A program made the translations under genes and the position numbers. Source: a virus (taxonomy: Duplodnaviria > Caudoviricetes). Taken from it: a stretch of DNA of 64,000 nt. The notes beneath the pieces are model-generated. The model worked only from the letters and a program-made list of their open reading frames with translations, made no database searches and was not told where the DNA came from. The stretch is from the IMG/VR virus record IMGVR_UViG_3300024249_000001, positions 935 to 64,934 of that record, one strand, 5' to 3'. Numbering within the stretch: the stretch's first letter is position 1; each line of letters starts with the position of its first letter. This document shows positions 1 through 22,789 of this stretch, one piece after another.

Positions 1-5
1 ACCTA

Positions 6-2849
6 GTGTGGTACCGGCCTCCACGCAATTGGTTAGATGGCGCGCCCTGGTGCGACGCGGCCATAGCGGCGTGCAAGCCGTTCAATGATGCCCTGGTCCG
101 AGAGCGCGCGCCGAAGTGTATCTTGGCGCTGGGCGGGATGGCCATGCGGGAGCTGACCGGGCTCTCCGGGGAGAAGTGCGGGATCGGGATGACGCGCGGA
201 TTCGTGGTGCCCGGCACGGCTTACCAAGGGATCCCGGTGGTGGGCAGTTATCATCCATCGTTCCTCCGCAGGGGCAGCAAGGAGCGTGAGGAGTCCGGGC
301 CGCGCGGGAAGATCGAGGCGGCCGGCGGCGGCACCCAGGGAATGAGCCTGCTGGGCGTGCTGATCCGGGATATTCTGCTGGCCGTGGCGACCGCGCGGGA
401 CGGCGCGAGGAGGTTCGAGTATGACGATTACCGAATGGGCGCTACTCTTGCTAGTTGGCGCGACGCTCTTGGGATTCTGTTACATGATCCTACTCTTCCT
501 ATTAGTTATGACTTCGAGACCCTCGACTCGATCACCGCGTCTGACGAAAGCGAGTTCGAGATTACTCGACGTGATGTTACCCAGGTGCAAATTTCTTGGC
601 GGCCCGGGCAGGCGCTAGTCTCGGATTGGTTCCCAGAGCTGAGGCCAGTGCTCCAGGAGATCCTGGAGCTGCCGAATCCGAAGCTCGACTGGAACGGGAG
701 GAAGTTCGATCGTCCCATCCTGCGCGAGATGGGGATCCGCTCGGACATCGGCGAGTGGCATGACCTGATGGACTTCTGGCATCACTCCCAGCCGGATCTG
801 GCGCGAGGGCTCCAGTTCGCGACGAGCTTTCACTGCCCGGAGGTGGGCCCGTGGAAGCACCTCTCGGCGAGTGATCCGCACTGGTACGGCGCGCTCGATG
901 TGGACATGCCCCAGAGGATCTTCGCAGGGCTGCGCGTTAGCTGTTCGCAGACTCGGCATCCAATCTCGGGCATCTCGCTCTGCTCCGGATACCAGGACCA
1001 GGTGGTGCGATTGGCGCCTGTACTAGATCGGATGAGCGCGCGCGGCATTCCGGTCGACGACGCCAAGCGGCTTGCGCTCGACGTGGAGTTCACCGCGACC
1101 CTCGAACGGATCGAGTCGGAGTGCCAGGATCTCTTCCCGGAGGAGATCAAGAACGTCAGTCCCAAGCGCGGGTATGTGCGGACGCCAGCTAAGCTGCTGC
1201 GGGATTGCGAAACTTGTGCCGGTGCCGGAAAGGTATTGATCCCGGCCGAGGCGAACGGCAAGAACAGGGTGATTGAATGTCCTGAATGCCATGGAGGGAA
1301 GCGGTTCGTGCGGCCGGACATTCCACTCAAGTGGGTCGAGCGGGAGTTTGAAGATTCAGTGAAGTGTGCGTGTGGTTGGGCGAAGCCGCACAAGAAAACG
1401 ATTGATCCGGATTGCTTGGAATGTAGAAACACCGGGAAGGTGACTCGACGGGTCAAGCGGTGGGCGCGGGTGGAGGACTTCCTGCCCGGCAGCTGGCAGC
1501 AGGTCCTTCGCTACATCGAGCACATGCGGGATAAGGACGTCGCTGAGAGAGCTGCGGCCTACTGCGAGCGGCATCCGACCATGGCGAGTCTGGCCCCGAG
1601 CTGGGCGCGGGAGAAGAGTCCCTGGAAGGTCCCGCTCGACCACAAGACGGGGAAGCCGACCACGGCTGAGGCCGAGCTCGCGCGGCTAGCTAAACGGACC
1701 GAGGATCTGCTCTTGCCGAAGATCCTGGAGCACCGGGAGATCGCCAAGGCGCGAGGAACGTATGTGCGCGGGTGGGCGCCGGGAGCGGACGGCAGAGTCC
1801 ATCCGAACTTCGGGTTCAAGCCCGCCACGCCGCAGCTCTCCAGCGATTCGCCGAACGCGCAGAATTTCTACGCGCACGGCGAGATCGCGCACCGGATGAA
1901 GCAGATGATCGTTGCGCGCTCTGGCTATCGCATGGTGAAGTTCGACTGGAAATCGTTCTTCATCATCACCGGGGGGTTCGAGGCGCAGGACGATCCGTTC
2001 ATCCGGATCGGTCGGGTGGATATGCACTCGTTTGTCACGCTGGTGGGTTTGCTCAAGCTAGAGCGCCCCGAGGTGGCGTTCGGCTGGGACACGGGAGAAC
2101 TCCGGGACAGGCTCAAGTTCTACCGCACGTCGGACACGCTTTATCCCGAGTATGCCCGCGGGGGATTCCCGGCGGGGATGACGTTCGGGCAGATCCGGGA
2201 TTACATCGCCAAACGGGTGATCTTTGCATGGCAGAACGGGCAAGGTCCGAGGTCGCTCTGGTACTTGTGGCAGGAGACATTCAAGGACATTGCTGAGGCC
2301 GCGACGTGTCAGCGGGAACTCGCGGCGCTGTTTCCAAAGACTCCAGCTTGGCAGTCGGAAGTGCGGATGCGCGCGGATGTGGATCATCAGCTGATTACGC
2401 GGTTTGGGCACATTAGGCGGTTCTGGGATGTTTACCACCGCCGGCCCGTGGCGGAGAACTACCAACCGCGCGGTGAAGAGCGGGTGTGGACGCATAAGTC
2501 GGGGCAAAGGTGGCTACTGGTCCCGGGGGATGATCACGAGGCGGTCACGGCGTACCTTCCAAATGCCAATGCTTATGGGATCAAACGGAAGACGCTGGTC
2601 GAGATCGGGGAGCGCGGATGGGACGAACGATATGGGTTGCTGGCGGACGTGCATGACGCGCTGTATTTCGAGTGTCCTGTGGAGCGCCTCGACAATCTCC
2701 TAGCGGACGTGAAGCCGTTAATGGAAGCTCCCTGTACGATCCTGACAGATCCGGTGACCGCACCTGAGGGCTTGTGGTGCGAGGTCGAGGCGGAGATCAG
2801 CCAGGACTGGGATCACTGGGAAAAAATAAGGCTGGGTGCGACCGTATGA
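6..2849 (+). CDS. polA: Family A DNA polymerase fused to an N-terminal uracil-DNA-glycosylase-like domain; 3'-5' exonuclease; Zn-finger insert; probably 5'-truncated by the window edge
   Basis: UDG family-4-like motifs (L)VWYRPPRN and SYHPSFL; ExoI YDFET, ExoII NGRKFD, ExoIII YGALD; polymerase motifs LSSDSPNAQN, A (FDWKS), B (RDYIAK..F), C (VHDALYFE). The frame is open upstream of base 6. Confidence 0.9.
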   Translation: MWYRPPRNWLDGAPWCDAAIAACKPFNDALVRERAPKCILALGGMAMRELTGLSGEKCGIGMTRGFVVPGTAYQGIPVVGSYHPSFLRRGSKEREESGPRGKIEAAGGGTQGMSLLGVLIRDILLAVATARDGARRFEYDDYRMGATLASWRDALGILLHDPTLPISYDFETLDSITASDESEFEITRRDVTQVQISWRPGQALVSDWFPELRPVLQEILELPNPKLDWNGRKFDRPILREMGIRSDIGEWHDLMDFWHHSQPDLARGLQFATSFHCPEVGPWKHLSASDPHWYGALDVDMPQRIFAGLRVSCSQTRHPISGISLCSGYQDQVVRLAPVLDRMSARGIPVDDAKRLALDVEFTATLERIESECQDLFPEEIKNVSPKRGYVRTPAKLLRDCETCAGAGKVLIPAEANGKNRVIECPECHGGKRFVRPDIPLKWVEREFEDSVKCACGWAKPHKKTIDPDCLECRNTGKVTRRVKRWARVEDFLPGSWQQVLRYIEHMRDKDVAERAAAYCERHPTMASLAPSWAREKSPWKVPLDHKTGKPTTAEAELARLAKRTEDLLLPKILEHREIAKARGTYVRGWAPGADGRVHPNFGFKPATPQLSSDSPNAQNFYAHGEIAHRMKQMIVARSGYRMVKFDWKSFFIITGGFEAQDDPFIRIGRVDMHSFVTLVGLLKLERPEVAFGWDTGELRDRLKFYRTSDTLYPEYARGGFPAGMTFGQIRDYIAKRVIFAWQNGQGPRSLWYLWQETFKDIAEAATCQRELAALFPKTPAWQSEVRMRADVDHQLITRFGHIRRFWDVYHRRPVAENYQPRGEERVWTHKSGQRWLLVPGDDHEAVTAYLPNANAYGIKRKTLVEIGERGWDERYGLLADVHDALYFECPVERLDNLLADVKPLMEAPCTILTDPVTAPEGLWCEVEAEISQDWDHWEKIRLGATV

Positions 2850-3675: not shown

Positions 3676-3849
3676 ATGCCGAAGTTTCTGGAAGACAAGC
3701 TGAAGAAGGAATATCCCGGCAATCCGGGAGCCGTCTACGGGACGATGAACAAGCTGGGGGCGATGAAAGGGAACAAGGAGACCGCGAAGGGCCGCGCCAT
3801 GGAAAAGAAGCACGCCAAGGATGCCAAGAAGGGTCTAGCGAAGAAGTGA
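3676..3849 (+). CDS. small Lys-rich protein (MPKFLEDKLKKEYPG...)
   Basis: Read manually, not in the ORF track; AAGGAG upstream; preceded by a TTGACA-N17-CAAGAT promoter-like site near 3593; stop overlaps the next start. Confidence 0.65.
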   Translation: MPKFLEDKLKKEYPGNPGAVYGTMNKLGAMKGNKETAKGRAMEKKHAKDAKKGLAKK

Positions 3850-5033
3850 TCCCGCTCCAGTTCAAGTCGCTCTCGAACCCGCTGCTGATAGTGGGAGATA
3901 ATCCTTCATTACCTGGGGGTCTTTCGCGCATCGGCCGGGACCTCGCGACGCTCGCGTGTACGCTCCCGGAGTTCCGCGTGGGATATATGGGCCGGGGCGA
4001 GGGGAACCGCACGCGCTTTCCGTTCTGCTTGTATCCCTTCGACGAGCGGCACGAGTGGGGAGCGGACGTGATCCGCGAAGTCTGGCAGGACTTCTCCCAG
4101 GGCGAGCCAGGGATCATTCTCACGACCGATGATCCCTCCCGTAGAGTGTGGTTCGCAGATCCGGCGTTTGCCCCGCCGAAGCTCGAACAATTTCTGGGGA
4201 GCGGCCGGCAGTTCCGCAAGGTGGGATACTTCCCGCTGGACTCGACCGGGCCGGACGGGAGCGCGCTTGGGATCGAGGCCCGGAATACGATCCTGGGCTA
4301 TGATCGGGTGCTCTGCGCGAGCGAATGGGGAGCGGCTGTGGCTAAGCGCTCGGGGAGAGCGGACGCTGATTGGCTCCCTCATGGGTTCTTCCTGGACAAG
4401 TTCCACCCGCAAGCTCATGCCAGAGGGGCGATGGTGAAGAACGACGCTGAGGTCTGGGTCGGGATGGTCGCGGCGAACCAGGCTCGGAAGGACTTCCCCA
4501 CTTTCTTCGAGACCCTCGCCATCCTGCGGGAGCATTACGGCAATCGCCTCCGGGCGTGGCTCCATACCAACGCGCTGGTGGCGTACTGGAACGTGTACGC
4601 GCTCGCGGCGGACTATGGCGTGCAGGATATTCTGGACACCAGCACGAGCCTGCCGGACGAGATGCTGGCCATCCGGTACTCCGCGTGCGACTGCACCCTG
4701 CTGCCTACGGCGGGGGAGGGATTTGGGTACACGATCCTGGAGTCACTGGCTTGTGGCACGAGCTGCGTGACGACGGACTATGGCGCGGGGCAGGAGTTGG
4801 TGGCGGAGAGCTGCCGGGTGCGCCCTGTCGCGTACCGCGTCGAGACCTCGCATAATGTCCAGCGCGCGATTCTGAGCGGGCACGGGTTCGCCCGGGCGGC
4901 GATCGAGCAGATCGAGCAGAAGCGCGCGGATTGGAGCTATGTCGCCGAGCAGAACGCCGAGAGTGTGCGGCATTTGCAGTGGCCGAACCTGAGGTTCCTG
5001 TGGGAGCGTTGGCTGCGGGAGTGCCTGCGATGA
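3846..5033 (+). CDS. GT-B fold glycosyltransferase (GT4-like)
   Basis: NQARKDF and EGFGYTILESLACG motifs. Confidence 0.85.
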   Translation: MIPLQFKSLSNPLLIVGDNPSLPGGLSRIGRDLATLACTLPEFRVGYMGRGEGNRTRFPFCLYPFDERHEWGADVIREVWQDFSQGEPGIILTTDDPSRRVWFADPAFAPPKLEQFLGSGRQFRKVGYFPLDSTGPDGSALGIEARNTILGYDRVLCASEWGAAVAKRSGRADADWLPHGFFLDKFHPQAHARGAMVKNDAEVWVGMVAANQARKDFPTFFETLAILREHYGNRLRAWLHTNALVAYWNVYALAADYGVQDILDTSTSLPDEMLAIRYSACDCTLLPTAGEGFGYTILESLACGTSCVTTDYGAGQELVAESCRVRPVAYRVETSHNVQRAILSGHGFARAAIEQIEQKRADWSYVAEQNAESVRHLQWPNLRFLWERWLRECLR

Positions 5034-5212
5034 CCGGAGTATGCCAAGCTGAAACCGCCCCGCAGGTAGTAAATGGCATTGTGTACACATGCGTTTCGAG
5101 TTCATGGACGCTACTGCCAGCCAATGCACTTTCGCCTGCGCGCTTAGCTATTTTATTGATCTTCGTGTGCTGTTTGGGCTTAATTATATATACGTATTGG
5201 AGGGCGCGGTGA
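5030..5212 (+). CDS. small membrane protein
   Basis: ATGA overlap with the GT4 stop; C-terminal hydrophobic helix. Confidence 0.45.
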   Translation: MTGVCQAETAPQVVNGIVYTCVSSSWTLLPANALSPARLAILLIFVCCLGLIIYTYWRAR

Positions 5213-5958
5213 CCTCCGAGATCGTGAGCGTGCTCTGCGGCGGCTCCGGACCGCAATGCGCCGCGCCGGAAGAGTATCTAAAATCGCGGGAGTTGCCGAA
5301 CGGGGTGCGTCCATCCGGGTATGGCGTGCGGTTCTACGACAATATGAGCAACTCAGTCTCGCCTTGCACTGCATACCAGAATCTCCTAGAGACTTGCGAG
5401 ACGGACGTGCAGATACTAATACACGATGATGTTTCTATTCATGATCCGGAGTGGCGCGAGAAGGTGATGGCGCTCTTCGAGAGCAATAGCAACTGCGTGG
5501 CCGTGGGCCTGGGCGGCGCGACGGCGCTCGGCTCGCGGGATCTCTACCGCAAGCCTTGGAACATCTGGAACATGGCGCGGCGCGGGTACGCGAGCAATCA
5601 GGACGACGCTGAAATTCACGGCGTGCGGTTCACTGGAGAGCGCCGGGTCGCGGTGATCGAGCAGTTCTTCATGGCGATCCGGACGGATTGGCTCAGGCAG
5701 ATTGGGGGCTGGCCGGTGGAACATCTGCGACATCATATGCTCGACGGCTTCATTGCGTGCGAGGCCGCGCGGCGCGGTAAGGAGATTTGGATGACCGGGA
5801 TTTCTTGCCTGCACTCGGGAGGTGGGAGCAGCACAAAGGATAGCTATGCAAAGGCTTCTTGGCTACTCGGCGGAAGTATGAAGAGCGATCATCGACTGCC
5901 GCATGTCTGGTTGGCATCCGAGTATCGGGACGTGCTGCCGATTGAGGTTGGAACATGA
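5209..5958 (+). CDS. GT-A fold glycosyltransferase (GT2-like)
   Basis: YQNLLE...LIHDDV (DXD); GTG start coupled to the upstream stop. Confidence 0.75.
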   Translation: MTSEIVSVLCGGSGPQCAAPEEYLKSRELPNGVRPSGYGVRFYDNMSNSVSPCTAYQNLLETCETDVQILIHDDVSIHDPEWREKVMALFESNSNCVAVGLGGATALGSRDLYRKPWNIWNMARRGYASNQDDAEIHGVRFTGERRVAVIEQFFMAIRTDWLRQIGGWPVEHLRHHMLDGFIACEAARRGKEIWMTGISCLHSGGGSSTKDSYAKASWLLGGSMKSDHRLPHVWLASEYRDVLPIEVGT

Positions 5959-6677
5959 CGAACATAGTGATGCTAGTGTGTGATCGGATGCGGCTGCTCG
6001 AACAAGCCCTAGCGACCCTCGCTGCCAACACGCCACGCGAAGACTACACGCTCACGCTGGTGGATGATTGCTCCAGCGACTTCCGCGTTCGGCGGATGCT
6101 CGAAGCCCACGCTACACGCCCGAACGTGAGCCTACTGCGGATCGAGAAGAGTGCGCATGTGCTGGCGCGGGGGAAGAACCTCGGGGCGTTCTGGTCGGAG
6201 CAGACTTTTGGCCGGGGGGAGTGGCTGTACTTCAGTGACTCGGACGTGGCGTTTCTCCCGGGATGGTTAGGGAAACTGATCGTAGCGGCGGAACTTACCG
6301 AAGAATTCCACCAATATAAGTTATGGGGCGGTCAGATTCATCCATATCACCAAGAAGCGTCGTATCAGCATGAGAATCCACGCTTGCCATTCTCGGATCT
6401 GAGCCTTACTACACATGAGGTATTAGATGGGCCGTCGTGGCTCATGCGCTGGGACACTTGGGACCAGGTGGGCCCGTTCTCCCGCGAGTGCGCCCCTGGG
6501 ACGTGCCAGTCCGAGGACGCGGAATGGTGCGAGAGGCTCACGCAAAACGGTGGACGCATTGGAGTCGTGCATCCGCATGTCGTGCTGCACACCGGGCTGA
6601 CGAACACGGCGGGCGCTGACGCGCCCGGGCGGAAGGAACGTGAGGCTCAGCGAGCCACGGGGTATATCTATGAGTGA
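5955..6677 (+). CDS. GT2 glycosyltransferase
   Basis: LVDDCSSD, FSDSDV and SEDAEW motifs. Confidence 0.85.
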   Translation: MTNIVMLVCDRMRLLEQALATLAANTPREDYTLTLVDDCSSDFRVRRMLEAHATRPNVSLLRIEKSAHVLARGKNLGAFWSEQTFGRGEWLYFSDSDVAFLPGWLGKLIVAAELTEEFHQYKLWGGQIHPYHQEASYQHENPRLPFSDLSLTTHEVLDGPSWLMRWDTWDQVGPFSRECAPGTCQSEDAEWCERLTQNGGRIGVVHPHVVLHTGLTNTAGADAPGRKEREAQRATGYIYE

Positions 6678-6873
6678 TCCGTATTATGTTCCCGGGGCGC
6701 AGGAAGCCGAGAAGCTCCATGCGTTATGCGCGGCAGCGATGGCAGCGGCTCGGGTGTTGGAGACGTGTCCGCGCCGGGAGGAAGTGATGCCCTACGCGGC
6801 GCGGATTCTGGAGGCGCTGGCGGCGGGCTGCGAGCATATGGTGCGGCCAATGGGGAGGATCGATGGTAAATGA
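6670..6873 (+). CDS. hypothetical protein
   Basis: Fills the operon with overlaps at both ends. Confidence 0.5.
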   Translation: MSDPYYVPGAQEAEKLHALCAAAMAAARVLETCPRREEVMPYAARILEALAAGCEHMVRPMGRIDGK

Positions 6874-7444
6874 GATCGAGCGCCGCCCGGACCAGCCGGA
6901 CATCGCGGCGCACATGCCGGTCCTGGAGGAGCTTGCCAGCAGGTCCGCAGTGATCCTGGAGCTCGGGACGGGATTCGGCAACGGTTCGACACGGGCAATT
7001 GCTAAAGGGCTCGCGCGTTCGACCAAGCCGGACAAGCTCTGGGTCAGCGTGGACTTCGATCCCGCGCGCCCGGAGGAACCCCCGCAGGGCGTCGACTGCT
7101 GGCATTTGGTACATGGTCGGACGGAAGATCGCTTAACTGTAGGCCGTGTTTGTCCGTGGATGTTGAGCACGGAGTCTCCCCTGGATTTGTTGTTCATCGA
7201 CACGGACCACACGTACAAGCAGATGCAACGCGAGTTGGAATTGTGGGCCGGGTCGTTCGCGACGCTCGAGACGATCATCGTGGCGCACGATACGTGGATG
7301 TTTGGGGTGTATAACGACATGACGGAGGCGATTAAGAAGTGGGCGTTTGAGCATCCCGGGTGGGAGTATTTCGACTACTCGCTCGACTCGCACGGACTGG
7401 GGATGATGCGGCACCGGGACGGACCGTGGGGGGATGTGCGATGA
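6863..7444 (+). CDS. class I SAM-dependent methyltransferase (Methyltransf_24-like)
   Basis: ILELGTGFG, LLFIDTDH and VAHDT motifs. Confidence 0.8.
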   Translation: MVNEIERRPDQPDIAAHMPVLEELASRSAVILELGTGFGNGSTRAIAKGLARSTKPDKLWVSVDFDPARPEEPPQGVDCWHLVHGRTEDRLTVGRVCPWMLSTESPLDLLFIDTDHTYKQMQRELELWAGSFATLETIIVAHDTWMFGVYNDMTEAIKKWAFEHPGWEYFDYSLDSHGLGMMRHRDGPWGDVR

Positions 7445-7722
7445 GCGACAAACAAAATCGGAAAGTGGGAGATGTGGTGGTGCTTGAAGAAGAGCATGGC
7501 TACGCGAGTGTGACGATCCTCGCACGCTGGGATGAGGGAGACACGCGACGGTATAAGATCCGCTTCGAGAAGATCTTCATTCAGTACCCGTATGTGCCGT
7601 ATTATCCAGGCGATGAGATCGTGATCAGCTACAACACACGCTATACGAATTCCGGCTACGGCTGGCGTTTCGCGGAACTGAGCGAGTGGGATAATTTCAT
7701 GGCACCCGAGGTTCGGCGGTGA
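7441..7722 (+). CDS. hypothetical protein
   Basis: ATGA and GTGA overlaps within the operon. Confidence 0.55.
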   Translation: MSDKQNRKVGDVVVLEEEHGYASVTILARWDEGDTRRYKIRFEKIFIQYPYVPYYPGDEIVISYNTRYTNSGYGWRFAELSEWDNFMAPEVRR

Positions 7723-8330
7723 GTGAACTCTGCGTGTTTACAGCAGGACAAGACCTCGCACTCGCCCGCGCGTCCTGCGAGCGCGTGGGCATCCGGCTCC
7801 AGGAGTTCGACGGGAAGTGGAGCACGTTCTCGGAGATCAAGCTGGTCCGCGCGCGGAAGTTCCTAGAGACCCGAGGGGAGAAGTTCGCCATGTGGATCGA
7901 CGGGCACGACTCGCTACTCTTGCAGGACGAGGAGACGATCTTGCGGCGGTATCATGCCATCGGGCGGCCAGTGGTGGTGAGTGCCGAGCGCTCTTGCCAT
8001 CCGGACCCGGAGCGCGCGGAGAGCTATCCCGTGGCGCCGACCGGGTGGCCGAGGTTCCTGAACGCCGGTGGCTGGATCGGACGAACGGAGGATCTCATTA
8101 GCGTCCTGGACCGGGTGCGCCGGGCGGACCCGGTCGATCATGACCAGCGGGCCTGGACCACGGCGCTCCTCGCGGGGATTCTGCCCGAGGTCACGCTGGA
8201 TTATGCCCGACGGATCTTCGCTTGTGTGGGCGATGGCCCCGGGATCATGAGCGCGGATACTTGTGTGATGCACTGGAACGGCGGGGTCGCCGGGCGGGAT
8301 CGATACTGGAAGGCGTTGCAGGCATGCTAA
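7719..8330 (+). CDS. PLOD/LH3-type glycosyltransferase domain protein
   Basis: WIDGHD, VVSAERSCHP, FLNAGGWIG and DHDQ match the procollagen galactosyltransferase-like GT-A pattern. Confidence 0.75.
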   Translation: MSELCVFTAGQDLALARASCERVGIRLQEFDGKWSTFSEIKLVRARKFLETRGEKFAMWIDGHDSLLLQDEETILRRYHAIGRPVVVSAERSCHPDPERAESYPVAPTGWPRFLNAGGWIGRTEDLISVLDRVRRADPVDHDQRAWTTALLAGILPEVTLDYARRIFACVGDGPGIMSADTCVMHWNGGVAGRDRYWKALQAC

Positions 8331-8824
8331 GGCTCAACATCGGGTCCGGTCAGCGAAAATTTAAGGACTGGACGAATATCGACGCGCAAGCACGATGGAC
8401 TCCGGATGTGTGCATAGACGGCTGGGCGTATCTAACGCAGCAGAAGGATGCGAGCGTCGAGATGATCTGCCTCCATCACGTCCTGGAGCACTACGGGTGC
8501 GGCGAGGCGGACGCGCTGCTGGGAGAATGCCATCGCGTTCTAGCTCCCGGGGCGAGCCTGCTGGTCTTCGTCCCCGACATGGTGGAGCTGGTGGACGCCT
8601 GGTGGAAGGGCCGGATCGACACCCAGATCTTCATGACTAATGTCTACGGCGCATACATGGGGGACGAAGCCGATCGGCACAAATGGGGCTTTACGTTCCA
8701 GACACTCAAGGCCACACTGAAGAAGGCTGGGTTCCAGAGCGTGGAGAAATTCGACTGGCGGAAGATCCCCGGGGCGGACATCGCGCAGGATTGGTGGATC
8801 TTGGGAATGGAGGCGACGAAATGA
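8324..8824 (+). CDS. SAM-dependent methyltransferase (type 11-like)
   Basis: LNIGSG, HHVLEH and RVLAPGASL motifs. Confidence 0.8.
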   Translation: MLRLNIGSGQRKFKDWTNIDAQARWTPDVCIDGWAYLTQQKDASVEMICLHHVLEHYGCGEADALLGECHRVLAPGASLLVFVPDMVELVDAWWKGRIDTQIFMTNVYGAYMGDEADRHKWGFTFQTLKATLKKAGFQSVEKFDWRKIPGADIAQDWWILGMEATK

Positions 8825-8988
8825 AGGGCCGGGACAAACGGAAACTAGCACGCGCCAAAAGCGCCAAGCGGAAAGGAGCAGCGCCATGCAAGAACAAGCC
8901 GGGGCCGGAAGCGCAGGACCGGATCGCAACGAAGGTGATCGAATGGTGGGAAAAGGGATCGCACGCAGACCCATCCCGGTCGTCCTGA
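8821..8988 (+). CDS. small basic hypothetical protein
   Basis: ATGA overlap with the methyltransferase stop. Confidence 0.4.
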   Translation: MKGRDKRKLARAKSAKRKGAAPCKNKPGPEAQDRIATKVIEWWEKGSHADPSRSS

Positions 8989-9704
8989 TCGCGCGAAATA
9001 ATCTGGCCCTGACCAAGCTAGCGATCAAGAGCGTCCAGGCTCAGGACCTCCCGGTCGAGATCCTGGTGGTCGACAACCACTCGAACGATGGCACCGCGCA
9101 ATGGCTCCGGACCAAGTCGCTCACGGTGATCTCAGCGCCGGAGCAATGGAGTCTCGCAAGATGCTGGAACACCGCGCTCGCGGCGCTCTGGCGCGCAGGA
9201 TGGTCGAAGGCGCTCGTGTGTAACAACGACATCGAACTGCGGCCGGACACGGTGAGCCAGCTCAATCGGCACGGCGGGAAGTTCGTGACGGCTGTGAGCG
9301 TCAACCGCCCGGAGCAGTTGGTAGATGAGTCGAACGTCCTGCATGACTGGAATGAGCGTGAGCACCCGGACTTCTCTTGCTTCATGATCTCCCGGCGCGT
9401 GACCGACCGCGTGGGCTGGTTCGACGAGCGCTACTTCCCGGCGTATTGCGAAGACTCGGACTATCACGTCCGGATGTTCCGGGCCGGAATCCGGGCAGTG
9501 TGCGTGGACATCCCGTTCCTGCACCACGGAGCTTCCACGATCAAGACCGCCGGGGCTGGCGAGACCGCCAGGATCCGGCGCGGTGCGGACGCGAATCGGG
9601 AACGGTTCCGGCTTGTGTATGGATGCTTGCCGGGATCGGACGCGTATCAGGACCTGTTCCGCGAGTCGGAGAATGCCGCAAATGCGCAGACTTCAAAAGC
9701 TTAA
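8943..9704 (+). CDS. GT2 glycosyltransferase
   Basis: VVDNHSNDG, CNNDI and FDERYFPAYCEDSD motifs. Confidence 0.88.
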   Translation: MVGKGIARRPIPVVLIARNNLALTKLAIKSVQAQDLPVEILVVDNHSNDGTAQWLRTKSLTVISAPEQWSLARCWNTALAALWRAGWSKALVCNNDIELRPDTVSQLNRHGGKFVTAVSVNRPEQLVDESNVLHDWNEREHPDFSCFMISRRVTDRVGWFDERYFPAYCEDSDYHVRMFRAGIRAVCVDIPFLHHGASTIKTAGAGETARIRRGADANRERFRLVYGCLPGSDAYQDLFRESENAANAQTSKA

Positions 9705-14899: not shown

Positions 14900-15324
14900 T
14901 AGGGCCTAATGCGTACTTTAGCACTTCCCGGACTCGCGGCGAGGTTGACGGCGTGGTTCGAGATCGTCGCCTGGGGCGCGGCGAGCGTGACCGTCACGCA
15001 CGGGGAGTTCCCCGGGCAGGTAAAAGTGGACGGGAGAGAAATGGTCACCGTCGCGATCGTCCCGGGCCGGATGAACGAGGCGTTCATGCCCAGGAGGAGC
15101 ATCTTGCCCTGGTACGCGCTGGCGCTCTTGTCCGGCGGGAGCGCCCTCACGGCCATCCCGGTGGTGGGGGTGTTCACACTGATGGTCCACTGGTAGGTAG
15201 TCGCGCCGATGGTCGCGGTTGTGACCGAACACACGAGAGGCTTGGCGCTGGTGGACGGGCAGACGATGCCCACCTGGGACCAAACGGGAAGGGCTAAGGC
15301 TAGCAACGCGAGCAGGAGCTTCAT
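14899..15324 (-). CDS. secreted cohesin-like protein
   Basis: Signal peptide MKLLLALLALALPVWS-Q; YQWTI..., DKSA..., LLGMNASFIRPGTIATV resemble acidobacterial cohesin-type domains. Confidence 0.55.
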   Translation of the reverse strand: MKLLLALLALALPVWSQVGIVCPSTSAKPLVCSVTTATIGATTYQWTISVNTPTTGMAVRALPPDKSASAYQGKMLLLGMNASFIRPGTIATVTISLPSTFTCPGNSPCVTVTLAAPQATISNHAVNLAASPGSAKVRIRP

Positions 15325-18300
15325 GGCCCGATCACGCATCCCTGGCCCAGGCTCGCGTTCACGACCCGCTGGACATCCGTCGCGGAGCAGGACCCGGACT
15401 GAGTGATCGAGTTGGTGCACCCCACGATCCCCAGGGCCATGTTGGTCTGGAGCTGGATGTCCAGGACATTGGGCAGGACTGGCGGAACCGCGTGAGTCGC
15501 CGGCGCGCAGGTGGGCAGCGGCGGAGTCACTCCCGCAATGGTGATGCTAAACGGCGAAGGCCCCGCGACGCCGAACGTGTTCGTCGCGGTCACGTTGAAG
15601 CTGGTCGTCCCGGAGACGGATGGTGTGCCGGTGAGGATCCCGGTGATCCCCAGAGTGGCCCAGGACGGCAGACCAGTGCTAGTCCAATTAATCGGCGTCG
15701 TCCCAGTCGCGCGAAACGTGTAGGAGTACGGAGTCCCCACCGCGCCATTGGGCAGCGGGCTGACGCTAGTGATAATCGGGGCGAGGTTCGGATTCGCAAT
15801 GGTGAGTGTGAAGGTCCGGGGGCCATCGCTCCCAGTGCTATTGGTAGCGGTCACGGCGAAGGAACTGGACGCCGCGGTGGGAGGAGTTCCGGTCAACGCT
15901 CCCACTGAAGAGAGCGATGCCCAGCTTGGGAGCCCCGTAGCGCCCCAGGTAATCGGTGCTGTGCCCGTTGCCGTGAACTGATAGGAATAAGCCGTGCCCG
16001 CAGTTGCGCCCGGTAGCGGAGTGGTGCTGGTGATGGACGGTGCGACCCCCGTCACCGTGAGACTGAAGTCGTGCGGCCCGTCGCTCCCCGTGCCGTTCGT
16101 TGCGGTGACGTGGAGAGTGCTCACAGCGACGGCGTTCGGAGTTCCGGTGAGCATCCCGGCGCTCGAGAGCGATGCCCATCCCGGGAGTCCCGTTCCGCTC
16201 CAGGTGATCGGCGCAGAGCCTCCGGCGGCAAACTGGAACGAATACCCCGTGCCCAACGTGCCGTTCGGGAGTGGGCTAGTGGAGGTGATCGTGGGCGCGA
16301 CGGGAGGTGTGACGACCGTGAGACTGAAGTTATGCGGGCCATCGGTCCCCGCGACATTCGACGCTGTTACTGCCAGAATCGTCGTGGTGCTGACGTTCGG
16401 CGTCCCGGTCAGAAGGCCGCTAGCCGATAGGCTCGCCCATGCAGGGAGTCCCGTGGCGGACCATGTGACCGGGCTGGTGCCGGTCGCGGCAAATTGGAAT
16501 GAGTACGGAGTCCCATTTGTCCCGCCAGGCAGTGGACTCATGCTGGTGATCACTGGCGGGATTCCGGCGATCGTGAGGGAGAAGTTCGTCGGCCCAGCGC
16601 TCCCGGCGGAGTTCGTCGCGCGGACGGACATGGTGGTAGTGGCGACGGCGTTCGGCGTCCCGTTCAGCAAACCCGCAGAGGACAAGGTCGCCCAGCTAGG
16701 TAAGCCAGTTGCGCTCCAGGTGATCGTCCCGGAGCCAGTCGCGGCGAATGCAAACGAGTACGGAGTGCCGATGGTCCCAGACGGGAGCGGATTCGTGGTG
16801 GTGATCACCGGCGCGCTAGAGGCGAGGCGCCATCCCAGGGCGTTGTCGATCCCAGGCGCGCCAAACGCCTCCCCGTAGTTCTTGCCCAGAATGGTGATGT
16901 TATCGGCGCCGAGGTTCCCGAACAGACAAGGCGGAGTGTTGACCGGACTCGTTGTGTTGCAATTCGCCGCCGCTTCCCAGGTGTCCGTCACCAGGCCATC
17001 GCAGGCTGGACCGGAGCACGGCAAGGTCTTCAGGCCCTCGTTGGCCGCGCTGGTGAGGCCCGCGGTGGGACCGCCCAGCTGAGCCGCAAGGCACTCATTC
17101 GTCCAAGCCAGGTAGGTCGCATTGAATGTCTGCGCGTAGAGCCATGCGATCCCGCCGCAGACTGTACGGGTCAGGTTCCGGTCCCCGGTGCCGTTGTTGC
17201 AGTAGGTCGCCGAGGAATGGCAAGCAGCGGAGGCGCTCGGCGCATAAGCCACCGCGCTCCCGCTGAGGTTCCCAATCTCCCCGTAGAGCCCGTAAGGAAC
17301 CGTGAGCGTCGCGTGCGTGTTATCGGCGCAGGAGGAGAACTTGTAAATCGTCCGCGGGGTGTTCAAGCCGATGAATGGGTTCGAGGTGCACTGCGCTAGG
17401 AAATTCGTCCCGCTCCCGACAATGCTTGTCGAGCCATGAGTGATGGCCACGGTCCCGGCGCCGGGAGAGATGGTCAGCTGATCGTTGGACTGCGAGTTGA
17501 CCTCGTAGTAGATCCCCCGGTTCGAAGTGTCGCGGCCATAGTTGTTCTGCCAAGTTACGGCCTTGGTGATCACCGCTAGGGTCGCCGCAGCGAGCGACGG
17601 GTTGTTGCATCCTTGTGCTCCATTATCGTTCAGGGACTCGTAGGACGCTTCCATGGCTTTGACGTTGATCGCCTCGCGCCACGGCGCCCCAGGATAGAGA
17701 AACGGACTTGCGAACGCTTTGGGGGCCGCCACGAAAGTTGGATTTATCTCATACTCCGCCTCTGGCCACGATCCATCCGGAGCCTGAACGGAGTTCCAGA
17801 TCGACGTGTAGGTCGAGAGCCAGGAGCAATACTGGGCGTGCCGGGTCGGGTCGGTGTCTACTTTCGCACCGAGCGCGATGTCCCAGAGCACATATCCGGC
17901 TTCGCGATTGTCGATGGCTGGGCTTGCGGAAGGGTCGGCCCATCGCGGAATTTCGCTAGAGATCCAAGTGTAGAGTCCAGGAAGGCGCTCTGTGTGCCCC
18001 TCAGTCACGCGGAAGAACTGCGAGATCATCGCCGCCGCCCGGGGAGCGAGCTGCCTGCGGTATCCGTGGTCGAGCGTCCACTGCCACTGAATGTCAGCAT
18101 AGGCGCGGGCTTGCGTGAGATACGTCGCGTTCCCGGTGCGAATCCACAGCCGATAGAGCGCGATCGCCACGTCGTAATAGTTCCAGACCGTCGAAGGATT
18201 CTCCGTCGTCCAGCATTGGAAGTCGCAGCCGTAGCTATTGGGCGGTGGCATCAGGTAGCCTGTCATGCCGGATTGCGACGGCTGCTGAAAGTCTCCATCG

Positions 18301-19742
18301 GCACAAACTACAGTGGTCGATGTCACGTTGGAGATCGGGCACATGAAGCGGCCGGTTCCAGGGCCGTCTACAGTCGTCCATGCGATGGTGATCCAGGCAA
18401 CTCCGGCAAGTGGGACACGCTGGTCTACTGTGGTCGTGAAGAACTGATTCCCCTGCACCCAGGAGAACGTCCCCGCGAGCGGAGTGCCAAGAGCGGGAGC
18501 CGCCGCGAGAGCAATCGGAGCCATATTGTCAGCGGTGCCCTTCTCCGCTAGATCCCCGAAGGTCCAAGGGTTCGAGCCGTAGGGCGTGAGCGGTCCAAGC
18601 AGGTTATTTTGGATCGCGGAGAGGCCAGTGATGCAGATGCCGTTCGCGTCGGTCGTGCAGGGGTTTGTTGGCGCTGCTCCTGGATTTGCCGATCCTACCC
18701 ATGCCGGATTGGTAAGAGACGCATAGTATAGATTAGTTCCGTCCGTCGTGATCTCATTCAATGAAAGCTCTGAGGTTCCGAAGTAGAACACCGAGGTTGC
18801 TAGTGTCCCTGGAGTGATCCGGCCTAGAGCACTGCGTTGCGTGCTGGTGTTTACAAAAGTCGCCCAGACATAAGTGCCGTCGAAGATGCAACCGCCATCA
18901 GAGGACCATCCTGCGCCGAGCGTCGGCGTGAAGTCGATCAAGGTCTGGCTGGTGAGGTTCGTCCGGTCGATGCGAATGACATTCGCGCCGGTTGTGTTTG
19001 GCGAAGTGGACTCCGATTGGATGTAAATATACGTCCCGTCGAAAGCCATCTCCTGCGGAGAGACAAACGCGACCGTCAGGTCTTGGGAATCTTCGGCTGT
19101 GAAAGTAGCGGTGTCGATCCTGGAAATCTCAGTCGGTATCGTGGAGGTGGACGAGTATAGTTTCCCATGCGCTGCATCGTAGACCATCGCGTGCGGGTTG
19201 CTGCGATTGCCATACGTGATATTGGAGACCCGTGCATAATCGGACAGGCGGTAACGGATAAGCGCGGAGGAGTTCAGTGGAGAGTTCTGATTCTTCACGA
19301 CATACAAGTATGTTCCGTCCGAAACCATCGTCCCGATGCTCGCCACGTTCGCTGGAGGAACCGTGTCGGAAACAACGTCGGTTGATGTTAGTGTCGTTGG
19401 ATCTACTTCTCCGATGGTCACGTTGGTTTGCGTCAGGAACCCGCCGAACAGGACATAGAGCTTCCCCTTAGACGGCACATAAATCACCGTGGAGGGATGC
19501 TTGTGGTTCCCGTCATTGGGAAATGTGACGCTATTGGTGGTAGCTCCAGTGGTCGGATTGATCTGGAGAAGTTGCCCCGGATCGGTGAAGGTCACGACCC
19601 AATAGGAGCCTAACGCATAGGTGCCGCCCTCGATAAAGTTCTGCCCGGTCGAGAGCGTCTGGAACCAACGAGGCGTTATGGTCTGCCCGAACGCCAGCGA
19701 CGCGACGAGCGCTAGCAGACCTGCTTGGATGCCGGACTTCAT
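15321..19742 (-). CDS. large secreted multidomain protein (1473 aa): beta-propeller-like region, central domain, five He_PIG Ig repeats, C-terminal dockerin-like domain
   Basis: Signal peptide MKSGIQAGLLALVASLAFG-Q; repeated ITS..PLP.G...Y.F...ATG...ITWS.TGLP.WA.L...G.L.GTP; C-terminus NVLDIQLQTNMALG...DVQRVVNASLGQGC. Confidence 0.85.
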   Translation of the reverse strand: MKSGIQAGLLALVASLAFGQTITPRWFQTLSTGQNFIEGGTYALGSYWVVTFTDPGQLLQINPTTGATTNSVTFPNDGNHKHPSTVIYVPSKGKLYVLFGGFLTQTNVTIGEVDPTTLTSTDVVSDTVPPANVASIGTMVSDGTYLYVVKNQNSPLNSSALIRYRLSDYARVSNITYGNRSNPHAMVYDAAHGKLYSSTSTIPTEISRIDTATFTAEDSQDLTVAFVSPQEMAFDGTYIYIQSESTSPNTTGANVIRIDRTNLTSQTLIDFTPTLGAGWSSDGGCIFDGTYVWATFVNTSTQRSALGRITPGTLATSVFYFGTSELSLNEITTDGTNLYYASLTNPAWVGSANPGAAPTNPCTTDANGICITGLSAIQNNLLGPLTPYGSNPWTFGDLAEKGTADNMAPIALAAAPALGTPLAGTFSWVQGNQFFTTTVDQRVPLAGVAWITIAWTTVDGPGTGRFMCPISNVTSTTVVCADGDFQQPSQSGMTGYLMPPPNSYGCDFQCWTTENPSTVWNYYDVAIALYRLWIRTGNATYLTQARAYADIQWQWTLDHGYRRQLAPRAAAMISQFFRVTEGHTERLPGLYTWISSEIPRWADPSASPAIDNREAGYVLWDIALGAKVDTDPTRHAQYCSWLSTYTSIWNSVQAPDGSWPEAEYEINPTFVAAPKAFASPFLYPGAPWREAINVKAMEASYESLNDNGAQGCNNPSLAAATLAVITKAVTWQNNYGRDTSNRGIYYEVNSQSNDQLTISPGAGTVAITHGSTSIVGSGTNFLAQCTSNPFIGLNTPRTIYKFSSCADNTHATLTVPYGLYGEIGNLSGSAVAYAPSASAACHSSATYCNNGTGDRNLTRTVCGGIAWLYAQTFNATYLAWTNECLAAQLGGPTAGLTSAANEGLKTLPCSGPACDGLVTDTWEAAANCNTTSPVNTPPCLFGNLGADNITILGKNYGEAFGAPGIDNALGWRLASSAPVITTTNPLPSGTIGTPYSFAFAATGSGTITWSATGLPSWATLSSAGLLNGTPNAVATTTMSVRATNSAGSAGPTNFSLTIAGIPPVITSMSPLPGGTNGTPYSFQFAATGTSPVTWSATGLPAWASLSASGLLTGTPNVSTTTILAVTASNVAGTDGPHNFSLTVVTPPVAPTITSTSPLPNGTLGTGYSFQFAAGGSAPITWSGTGLPGWASLSSAGMLTGTPNAVAVSTLHVTATNGTGSDGPHDFSLTVTGVAPSITSTTPLPGATAGTAYSYQFTATGTAPITWGATGLPSWASLSSVGALTGTPPTAASSSFAVTATNSTGSDGPRTFTLTIANPNLAPIITSVSPLPNGAVGTPYSYTFRATGTTPINWTSTGLPSWATLGITGILTGTPSVSGTTSFNVTATNTFGVAGPSPFSITIAGVTPPLPTCAPATHAVPPVLPNVLDIQLQTNMALGIVGCTNSITQSGSCSATDVQRVVNASLGQGCVIGP
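15533..16812 (-). repeat. five tandem ~85-aa He_PIG (putative Ig) repeats
   Basis: Repeats visible in the translation; boundaries approximate. Confidence 0.85.
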
Positions 19743-20521
19743 TAGAAGATCGTTCCGTGCCCCGGCGTCAGGCTTCCGGTTGCAGCCGTTGACTTGAATG
19801 ACGCAATTCCGGCGACTGCCGTAACTGGAGTACCCATCGCCCATTGTGGGTTCGCCGCCGCCGCCGATGTTTGAATCAAATAAGCCAAGGACACACCCCA
19901 GCTATTGACTGTGTAATCCGTAGTCCCTCCGGTTGGGATTGTGAAACCGCCATTGATAGAAACCGTTGATCCCATGAAATATCCGAGTCCAGCTATCACG
20001 AGTTCATTATTCTGCCCAGGCGTAATACTCCCCGTTGTCAAAGTTGTAGTTGCTGCCCCATTATTCCCATTCTGCTGATCGAATGGACTAGATGCGACTC
20101 CAGCAAATGCAGCAACACTCAAAGCTGGATAAGTTGCTCCGCCAGAAAGCGTAAACGTGTGACTCGCGTTTGTCGTTGGAGCTTGTTTGTAATAGATCGT
20201 AAGCTGTGGCTGGGACGAGCCATTCCATACCGTGAGAGCGGTATAACTATTAGACTGATTGTCGCTAAAAGTCTGACTTCCGCCGCTGATCTTAATAGTC
20301 ACAGCCACAATAAGGTTAGCCCCAACGGTGCTAATCGCAGCCGTTGTTACGTTGGTGGTATCCGACGATCCAGCGCTCTTGTTATTTCCTATCGTGATCG
20401 CGGCTTTTAGTTCTGGGACAACGATAAGAGACGATGCGGCGGCGACCCACAGACCGCCGCGCTTGATAAACTTCCTTCTCGTATCGAGATCAAACGAATC
20501 AGGATTGTTCGCTAGTCGCAT
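19742..20521 (-). CDS. Tat-exported beta-sandwich protein
   Basis: TRRKFIK twin-arginine motif, then a hydrophobic stretch and ELKA-A; start set by an upstream small ORF. Confidence 0.7.
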   Translation of the reverse strand: MRLANNPDSFDLDTRRKFIKRGGLWVAAASSLIVVPELKAAITIGNNKSAGSSDTTNVTTAAISTVGANLIVAVTIKISGGSQTFSDNQSNSYTALTVWNGSSQPQLTIYYKQAPTTNASHTFTLSGGATYPALSVAAFAGVASSPFDQQNGNNGAATTTLTTGSITPGQNNELVIAGLGYFMGSTVSINGGFTIPTGGTTDYTVNSWGVSLAYLIQTSAAAANPQWAMGTPVTAVAGIASFKSTAATGSLTPGHGTIF

Positions 20522-20646
20522 TTTAGTAACGCACTTGGCTTGCAGCCAATCGCGTTTGGCCCAAAGGTTATGATCAAGACGTAGGCAGCATAAAACAATC
20601 CCACGTAGACACAAAGAGTAATCGCATACCGGGCATGTATCTTCAT
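20512..20646 (-). CDS. 44-aa membrane peptide (MKIHARYAITLCVYVGLFYAAYVLIITFG...)
   Basis: Read manually; ATGA overlap with the upstream stop; one TM helix. Confidence 0.5.
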   Translation of the reverse strand: MKIHARYAITLCVYVGLFYAAYVLIITFGPNAIGCKPSALLKCD

Positions 20647-22739: not shown

Positions 22740-22789
22740 TTGTGGCAATGCTAACACGTTCGGGGCGGGATTAGAATAGAATGTTCGTC

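Follow-up and report, generated by a model that had tools for sequence, protein, structure and literature searches.

The DNA analysed here, referred to below as the window, is a stretch of 64,000 nucleotides comprising bases 935–64934 of the 64,934-bp IMG/VR record L001, which derives from an uncultured soil phage. The record has direct terminal repeats and an estimated completeness of 100%, and genes for a portal, a major head protein and an SU10-type adaptor mark it as a tailed virus. The window opens inside a gene whose product, P0003, is a family A DNA polymerase (PolA) fused to a uracil-DNA glycosylase (UDG)-like domain and a 3'-5' exonuclease, and in which several residues of the polymerase active site have been exchanged. 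P0003 is the sole DNA polymerase of this phage: the complete genome, searched in six frames, contains a single PolA and no PolB. Upstream of the P0003 gene lie genes for an AAA_25/DnaB-like helicase, a PD-(D/E)XK exonuclease and a Sak4-like annealing protein, which together form a replication module. The first ~170–260 nt of the polymerase open reading frame (ORF) lie beyond the 5' edge of the window, and the Glu of the UDG GE motif (E16) is encoded just upstream of that edge. Positions of the features are collected in the table below.

From the N- to the C-terminus, P0003 consists of a family-4 UDG-like domain, the exonuclease, a beta-rich insert and the family A polymerase, which carries two further inserts; about 60 amino acids (aa) follow motif C. 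In Pfam the protein matches DNA_pol_A (PF00476) with 60.5 bits, where the cut-off is 34.3, and has weak UDG and DnaJ_CXXCXGXG matches besides; in PHROGs it falls into phrog_17, DNA polymerase (E 1e-31). All three exonuclease motifs are intact, with D227/E229 in Exo I (510–518), D293 in Exo II (708–710) and Y352/D356 in Exo III (885–899). An earlier note on this DNA had proposed structure prediction as a check, and the AlphaFold2 model, built with 75 relatives, shows a Klenow fold (mean predicted local distance difference test score, pLDDT, 92.3; predicted template modelling score 0.88). In Foldseek it comes closest to the large fragments of Klenow, Bst and Taq, with template modelling scores of 0.75–0.80 on the target. 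The beta-rich insert between the first thumb helices forms strands at residues 442–547 of the model (pLDDT 65–92) and has weak Pfam matches to DnaJ_CXXCXGXG and Anti-TRAP. It is kept in the closer relatives only, and may be a zinc-ribbon module for binding DNA or a partner.

Table. Features of the polymerase gene and its downstream neighbours, in window coordinates.
Feature	Window position	Strand	Details
UDG-exonuclease-PolA fusion polymerase gene	1..2849	+	Full ORF L001:673-3783; product P0003, 1005 aa
C-terminal part of family-4 UDG-like domain	1..400	+	Type-4 UDG chains, E 0.015; HPS motif, H141 at 252-254
3'-5' exonuclease domain	414..1046	+	Exo residues identified in alignments
Beta-rich insert, ~110 aa, between first thumb helices	1137..1475	+	CETC 1206, CPEC 1278, CLEC 1413
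Motif 2, TPQLSS for TGRLSS	1827..1844	+	Q668 (CAG 1833-1835) in place of the minor-groove Arg
Motif A, FDWKSFFII for ADYSQIELR	1941..1967	+	D705 kept (1944-1946); E710 to F (TTC 1959-1961); R712 to I
Motif B (O-helix), IRDYIAKRVIFAWQNGQ	2193..2243	+	R789 (2196), K794 (2211), F798 (=F762; 2223), N802 (=Y766; AAC 2235-2237); model helix 785-801
Motif 6 region, HEAVTAYLPNANA	2535..2573	+	R841 to E; N845 to A (A907, 2550); Q849 to N (N911, 2562)
Motif C, VHDAL	2649..2663	+	H941 and D942 kept; E883 to A; H941-D942-A943 at 2652-2660
Five glycosyltransferases (GT1, three of GT2 type, PLOD-GT) and a Methyltransf_24 methyltransferase	3846..9704	+	Not part of the polymerase

The earlier note, which had aligned the protein by eye to E. 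coli Pol I, described a rewired active site, and four alignment methods now place the exchanges R668Q, E710F, Y766N, N845/Q849 to Ala/Asn and the HDA of motif C at the positions given in the table. A phmmer search against PDB chains pairs ATPQLSS with ATGRLSS of Taq and FDWKSFF with LDYSQIE, in both cases gap-free. The same residue equivalences were obtained with MAFFT E-INS-i on a set of 64 sequences that contained E. coli PolA and T7 gp5, with MAFFT L-INS-i after addition of N4 gp39, Lebethron and phiXF1, and with hhalign when a canonical PolA profile was compared with the profile of the family described below (probability 100%, E 3.6e-54). The structural equivalence of the residues rests on these sequence and profile alignments and on the fold-level matches, and the alignment with Pol I and T7 gp5 suggested in the earlier note puts no canonical residue at the substituted positions. 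The numbering of P0003 equals that of E. coli at positions 668, 705 and 710 by coincidence; elsewhere the E. coli equivalents are given in brackets.

Family A membership is evident from the profile match, the Klenow-like fold, the catalytic Asp residues of motifs A and C and the Lys of motif B. Intact in P0003 are D705, D942 (D882), H941 (H881), K794 (K758) and H732 (H734). The canonical sensors Arg668, Glu710, Tyr766, Asn845 and Gln849 are not, their places being taken by Gln, Phe, Asn, Ala and Asn. Replacement of R712 by Ile and of R841 by Glu extends the list given in the earlier note. That note had also counted the Arg, Lys and Phe of motif B as intact; all three are present, but the Arg (R789) stands five residues ahead of the Lys instead of four, and its match to R754 is positional rather than exact. 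The HDA of motif C is not unusual, being shared by N4 gp39 and Lebethron in the MAFFT L-INS-i alignment.

The exchanges are not peculiar to this phage. A word-indexed search yielded 54 UDG-PolA relatives with 28–85% identity in the polymerase domain, and a phmmer search over 1.84 billion cluster representatives matched 608 clusters (50%-identity clusters, E<=1e-30), none of which is from a cultured phage. Residues were counted in 131 near-full-length relatives with 31–85% identity. All of them have the Asp at 705, the Lys at 794 (K758) and the His-Asp pair at 941 and 942 (H881, D882), and 130 have the Arg of motif B at 789; the Exo I–III residues are invariant. Gln at 668 (R668) is likewise found in 131 of 131. 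Position 710 (E710) is His in 125 and Phe in six, position 903 (R841) is Glu in 115 and position 907 (N845) is Ala in 119. Several residues occur at 798 (F762; Leu 100, His 16, Phe 9, Tyr 4), 802 (Y766; Phe 95, Asn 19, Leu 14, Tyr 3), 911 (Q849; Ala 85, Gln 20, Ser 15, Asn 6) and 943 (E883; Ser 52, Ala 46, Asp 15, Glu 13). The UDG motifs are kept in most relatives, with E16 in 116, N57 in 125, H141 in 125 and P142 in 130. The family can be recognised by TxQ in place of TGR, D-x-K-S-F-H in place of DYSQIE, L/F-G-x-G-F-G in place of FGxxYG, A...A/N in place of N845...Q849 and HD(S/A) in place of HDE.

As a control, 12 canonical PolAs were aligned, namely those of E. coli, T7, Lebethron and N4, one phage-like PolA and seven metagenomic bacterial Pol I; every one of them has R668, E710, R712, Y766, N845 and Q849, and the cultured UDG-PolAs N4 gp39, Lebethron and phiXF1 retain TGR or its Arg together with the Glu gate. 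The variants are therefore not common in known phage polymerases that copy standard DNA; had they been, the reading of the earlier note would by its own terms have been overturned. Because the replaced positions are themselves strongly conserved, the site appears to be a working one under selection, and the alignments indicate that the substitutions are the signature of a distinct, strongly constrained subfamily, not of decay or of a single odd gene. Decay, or a pseudo-enzyme, was considered and is rejected on the conservation across the 131 relatives; the earlier note had argued the same from the intact catalytic Asp residues and Exo motifs, and these prove to be invariant throughout. GTDB genome contigs, scanned with a narrowed family alignment (two peptide patterns only), contained no relatives, which gives no clue to the host and is weak evidence against prophage forms.

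The six sequences with Phe at 710, including that of the phage studied here, form one clade (FastTree support 1.0) nested among sequences with His. At positions 710, 798, 802, 911 and 943 this clade has F/F/N/N/A, where its sister group has H/Y/F/A-or-S/D-or-S. Five active-site positions thus changed together on the one branch that leads to the Phe clade: His to Phe at 710, Tyr to Phe at the 762-equivalent, Phe to Asn at the 766-equivalent, Ala or Ser to Asn at the 849-equivalent and Asp or Ser to Ala at the 883-equivalent. In Klenow the side chains of E710 and Y766 touch, and the joint change at 710 and the 766-equivalent fits a co-evolution of contacting residues under selection.

The clade also differs in its UDG domain (window 1–260 with L001:766-934), which lacks the Fe-S cluster cysteines kept by most of the family: the Cys of the CRPP motif (Cys in 89 of the 131) has become Tyr and the N-terminal CxxC (82 of the 131) is gone, with the GE and HPS motifs staying in place. 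In about 10 of the 54 close relatives the polymerase is encoded by two genes, the break lying between motif 2 and motif A. In one of these relatives (L020:6001-9366) a 749-aa N-terminal part ends just past motif 2 and a 303-aa gene begins at the strand before D705; within the spacer of ~200 nt lies a small ORF whose product has a ClpX-like CxxC...CxxC zinc ribbon. The N-terminal part of this split polymerase is 76% identical to P0003 and its C-terminal part has the majority His/Leu/Phe signature, which suggests that N- and C-terminal halves have been exchanged between lineages. Inteins (PF14890) sit directly after TxQLS in P0007, P0016 and P0042 (equivalent to window ~1842), near the split site of the other relatives.

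A tblastn search with P0003 and the distant relative P0185 against 50,697 GenBank phage records returned short UDG or generic PolA segments only. The match in SP-15 is a stand-alone UDG gene and not the SP-15 polymerase, and SPO1-type phages were not among the matches; no SPO1 sequence was used for direct clustering. With the family hidden Markov model (HMM), bacterial Pol I scored 120–125 bits, Lebethron 109, N4 gp39 42, phiXF1 39 and T7 12. Bacterial enzymes of the Klenow/Bst/Taq type are closest both in structure and in profile score and share D705/D882, H881, K758, H734 and Exo I–III, whereas P0003 has a UDG domain instead of the 5' nuclease domain of bacterial Pol I, three family-specific inserts and the exchanges R668Q, E710F, R712I, Y766N, R841E, N845A, Q849N and E883A. 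In the classification of Czernecki et al. (2023; PMC10201439) PolAs fall into 19 clusters in which the TGR, A, B, 6 and C motifs were reported to be conserved; P0003 has neither the TGR Arg nor the Glu steric gate, Y766, N845 or Q849 that these clusters reportedly share.

In the same classification the N4-like UDG-PolAs make up cluster #17, in which the UDG catalytic residues are lost, and other UDG-PolAs were left unclassified (PMC10201439). P0003 resembles N4 gp39 and Lebethron in its UDG-exonuclease-polymerase fusion, in the module of helicase, exonuclease and Sak4-like annealing protein and in the HDA of motif C. Those two enzymes, however, keep TGR, the Glu gate and the Arg, Lys, Phe and Tyr of motif B, and P0003 keeps the GE and HPS motifs that N4-like UDG domains lack (PMC10201439). 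The retained UDG motifs, the lack of a tblastn match to N4-like phages and an N4 gp39 HMM score (42 bits) below that of Pol I (120) all place P0003 outside cluster #17.

With the SPO1-like, SP15-like and unclassified UDG-PolAs the protein has in common the GE and HP motifs of the UDG domain, the character of a tailed-phage replicase and large inserts in the polymerase domain. SP15-like UDG-PolAs such as those of YerA41 and phiLo come from phages with glycosylated thymidine (Missoury et al. 2026; PMC13697223), and the UDG motifs LLVGE and LNHP of phiLo correspond to the E16 and H141/P142 motifs of P0003 (PMC13697223), which thus appears to have the active-type motifs of that group, UDG-A and UDG-B. 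In contrast to the SP15-like enzymes, no polymerase-domain tblastn match attests relatedness, the inserts differ (P0003 has a putative Zn-ribbon near the thumb), no C-terminal domain of ~80 aa was identified, and the thymidine-hypermodification gene set is absent from the genome by six-frame searches. DpoZ enzymes, which belong to phages with ZTGC-DNA, have Y766F as a hallmark of both their clusters and keep the other canonical motifs (Czernecki et al. 2023, PMC10201439). P0003 shares with DpoZ a residue other than Tyr at position B4 of motif B, and most of its family has Phe there, as DpoZ does; P0003 itself has Asn, and the genome holds no PurZ-type gene, so that it does not belong to DpoZ. 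In the literature we found no PolA described whose steric gate is a His or a Phe. The family to which P0003 belongs is, judging by these comparisons, a large and so far undescribed PolA subfamily of uncultured phages.

We consider that P0003 is probably a replicative, proofreading polymerase that copies ordinary DNA from ordinary deoxyribonucleoside triphosphates (dNTPs), as a member of this rewired subfamily. This reading builds on what was observed directly: the residue equivalences and their conservation across the family, the fold, P0003 being the only polymerase, and a genome in which no known base-modification gene was found. Kept are the core for two-metal catalysis and the residues that bind the triphosphate (D705, D882, H881, K758, H734 and the motif B Arg); replaced are the sugar and minor-groove sensors, and ordinary DNA would still be made from ordinary dNTPs. 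Steric gates that exclude the 2'-OH are aromatic (Tyr or Phe) in B-family, Y-family and reverse transcriptase polymerases, and the gate position is occupied by a small residue (Gly) in RNA polymerases and in engineered Taq variants that accept ribonucleoside triphosphates (rNTPs). By analogy with these aromatic gates, the bulky His or Phe at 710 would still block the 2'-OH. The earlier note had spoken of a loss of the steric gate: the Glu is indeed gone, but the wording overstates the case, given a bulky Phe here and a His in 125 of the 131 relatives. Since both are bulkier than Glu, the gate may well have been exchanged rather than lost, with sugar exclusion persisting.

The minor-groove contacts would be taken over by Gln668, which could donate a hydrogen bond to the minor groove at the primer terminus, and by neighbouring residues, with Asn911/912 as a possible stand-in for Gln849. 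The UDG domain, whose catalytic-type motifs match those of the biochemically active phiLo and YerA41 UDG domains (PMC13697223), may strip uracil from the template before it is copied; in SP15-like UDG-PolAs the domain was shown to excise template uracil in advance of synthesis (PMC13697223). A role as replicase is also suggested by the replication module of helicase, exonuclease and Sak4-like protein, by analogy with N4 and Lebethron.

Some points weigh against this reading. All 12 canonical PolAs have R668, E710, N845 and Q849, which belong to motifs reported to be highly conserved over the 19 clusters of Czernecki et al. (2023), and their joint loss could reflect a genuinely different substrate. 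About half of the phage genes are without a detectable family, which leaves room for an unrecognised modification pathway, and the substrate specificity of the whole family is deduced purely from sequence.

The alternative put forward in the earlier note is that the pocket is adapted to a non-canonical substrate, so that a modified base or sugar would be preferentially incorporated or copied and the genome would be chemically modified; that note saw a possible link to the neighbouring glycosyltransferases, which would then complete the modification. Precisely the residues by which sugar and minor groove are read have been replaced, SPO1-like and SP15-like UDG-PolAs belong to phages with modified thymidine (PMC10201439; PMC13697223), and Y766F is a mark of both DpoZ clusters (PMC10201439). 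The search for nucleotide-modifying enzymes suggested in that note nevertheless turned up no known base-modification gene: six-frame searches of the complete genome gave no match for thymidylate synthase/hydroxymethylase (Thymidylat_synt), ThyX, dUTPase, dCMP deaminase, a PurZ-type enzyme (Adenylsucc_synt) or TGT/DpdA. The His-gate relative L006 has genes for a dGTP_diPhyd_N protein (the N-domain of a MazG-like dGTP diphosphohydrolase) and an NT5C 5'-nucleotidase ~2 kb downstream of its polymerase (L006:14748-16182), which speaks for a modified substrate; it is the only nucleotide-pool gene pair in the ten neighbourhoods of relatives that were sampled, and no nucleotide-metabolism gene recurs in nine other sampled neighbourhoods with the family signature. 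The polymerase gene is near-complete in shotgun assemblies from several independent soil metagenomes, and the DNA is therefore usable as a template for standard library preparation, unlike the hypermodified genomes of YerA41 and RP13 (PMC13697223). No RNA data set was among the sequencing runs listed for the gene.

The glycosyltransferases themselves, five of them with a methyltransferase, lie directly downstream of the polymerase, in the order GT1, Glyco_tranf_2_5, GT2, Methyltransf_24, PLOD-GT and GT2, a position that speaks for the modified-substrate alternative. Only L007, L008 and L020, the nearest relatives, have homologous clusters, with GT1, GT2-5 and GT2 proteins that are 59–74% identical. 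In L020 the cluster adjoins a polymerase C-terminal half with the majority His/Leu/Phe signature; beside the polymerase of the Phe-gate relative L013 it is missing, as it is in the His-gate relatives L004, L006, L016, L017 and L018. Both gate types are thus found with and without the cluster, and a link between the rewired polymerase and the glycosyltransferase operon is therefore not supported; modification by this operon of the DNA made by P0003 is rejected on the same distribution. A makeup of GT1, GT2 and PLOD-GT with an O-methyltransferase-like enzyme is typical of glycan synthesis. The cluster most likely makes a methylated glycan, which may be destined for the virion or for the envelope of the host; phage glycosyltransferases have been proposed to glycosylate the virions of actinobacteriophages (e.g. 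PMC11256854). All in all, the genome shows no sign of modified DNA, and we regard a substrate of modified nucleotides as unlikely. The earlier note was right, then, that the site is rewired and not decaying, and went too far in taking the gate as simply lost and in tying the polymerase to the glycosyltransferases.

Two further explanations concern the polymerase activity itself. Without the Glu710-Tyr766 pair the enzyme might discriminate less between sugars and tolerate rNTPs or RNA templates, for extension of RNA primers, embedding of ribonucleotides or reverse transcription. Motif C of single-subunit RNA polymerases is similar to HDS/HDA, and P0003 has both E710 and Y766 replaced, in a genome where no primase was recognised among the annotated genes. 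In Klenow, these are the two residues whose side chains were shown to exclude ribonucleotides (Astatke et al. 1998, as cited in PMC10201439). Yet the replacing residue is a larger one (Phe or His), whereas RNA polymerases and the rNTP-accepting Taq variants have Gly there; HDA also occurs in N4 gp39 and Lebethron, both with a Glu gate, and the conserved proofreading exonuclease and the UDG domain point to a high-fidelity DNA replicase. Relaxed sugar selectivity accordingly strikes us as quite improbable. It is far harder to believe that the polymerase domain is catalytically impaired, the protein serving mainly as a UDG/exonuclease or as a scaffold and a host polymerase replicating the phage. 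R668, E710, Q849 and E883, whose mutation cripples Klenow, are all missing, but the catalytic Asp pair, the His of motif C, the Lys and Arg of motif B and H734 show no or hardly any variation in the 131 divergent relatives, the replaced positions are strongly conserved (Q668 in 131, H710 in 125) and the fold is confidently predicted. Some members, moreover, carry inteins at motif 2, and inteins typically reside in essential active sites.

Elsewhere in the window, the genome is plus-strand except for two large genes at 15321–22757 (minus strand), one for a protein of 1507 aa that contains five He_PIG Ig-like repeats, the other for a protein of 704 aa. The pair adjoins the stretch of lowest GC content in the window (0.51 at 20–22 kb) and may be an acquired host-interaction module. 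Over the structural module (32000–53000) the GC skew is negative; the best-supported ORFs there are still on the plus strand.

R668, E710, Y766, N845 and Q849 are the textbook residues of Pol I for sugar discrimination and minor-groove proofreading and the usual targets of engineering. Here a very large natural clade (608 clusters at 50% identity) swaps them and keeps the catalytic core, the proofreading site and the UDG motifs. As the sensor residues are replaced and the core is kept, the Pol I fold would support another working arrangement, which one sub-clade has tuned again by a coordinated switch of five residues. Because the family is absent from cultured phages, current PolA phylogenies miss it. 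It is conceivable, though we put it forward with considerable reserve, that the subfamily represents a second solution to nucleotide selection in the Pol I fold, with a His or Phe gate, a Gln-based minor-groove check and an altered substrate range (2'-modified, ribo- or base-modified nucleotides being tolerated or preferred), re-tuned further in the Phe/Phe/Asn clade. If so, phages may carry DNA chemistry that stems from genes not yet recognisable, and these enzymes would be natural starting points for the synthesis of modified nucleic acids. The subfamily bears on how far the accepted mechanism of nucleotide selection generalises, and is a possible source of enzymes for modified nucleic acids.

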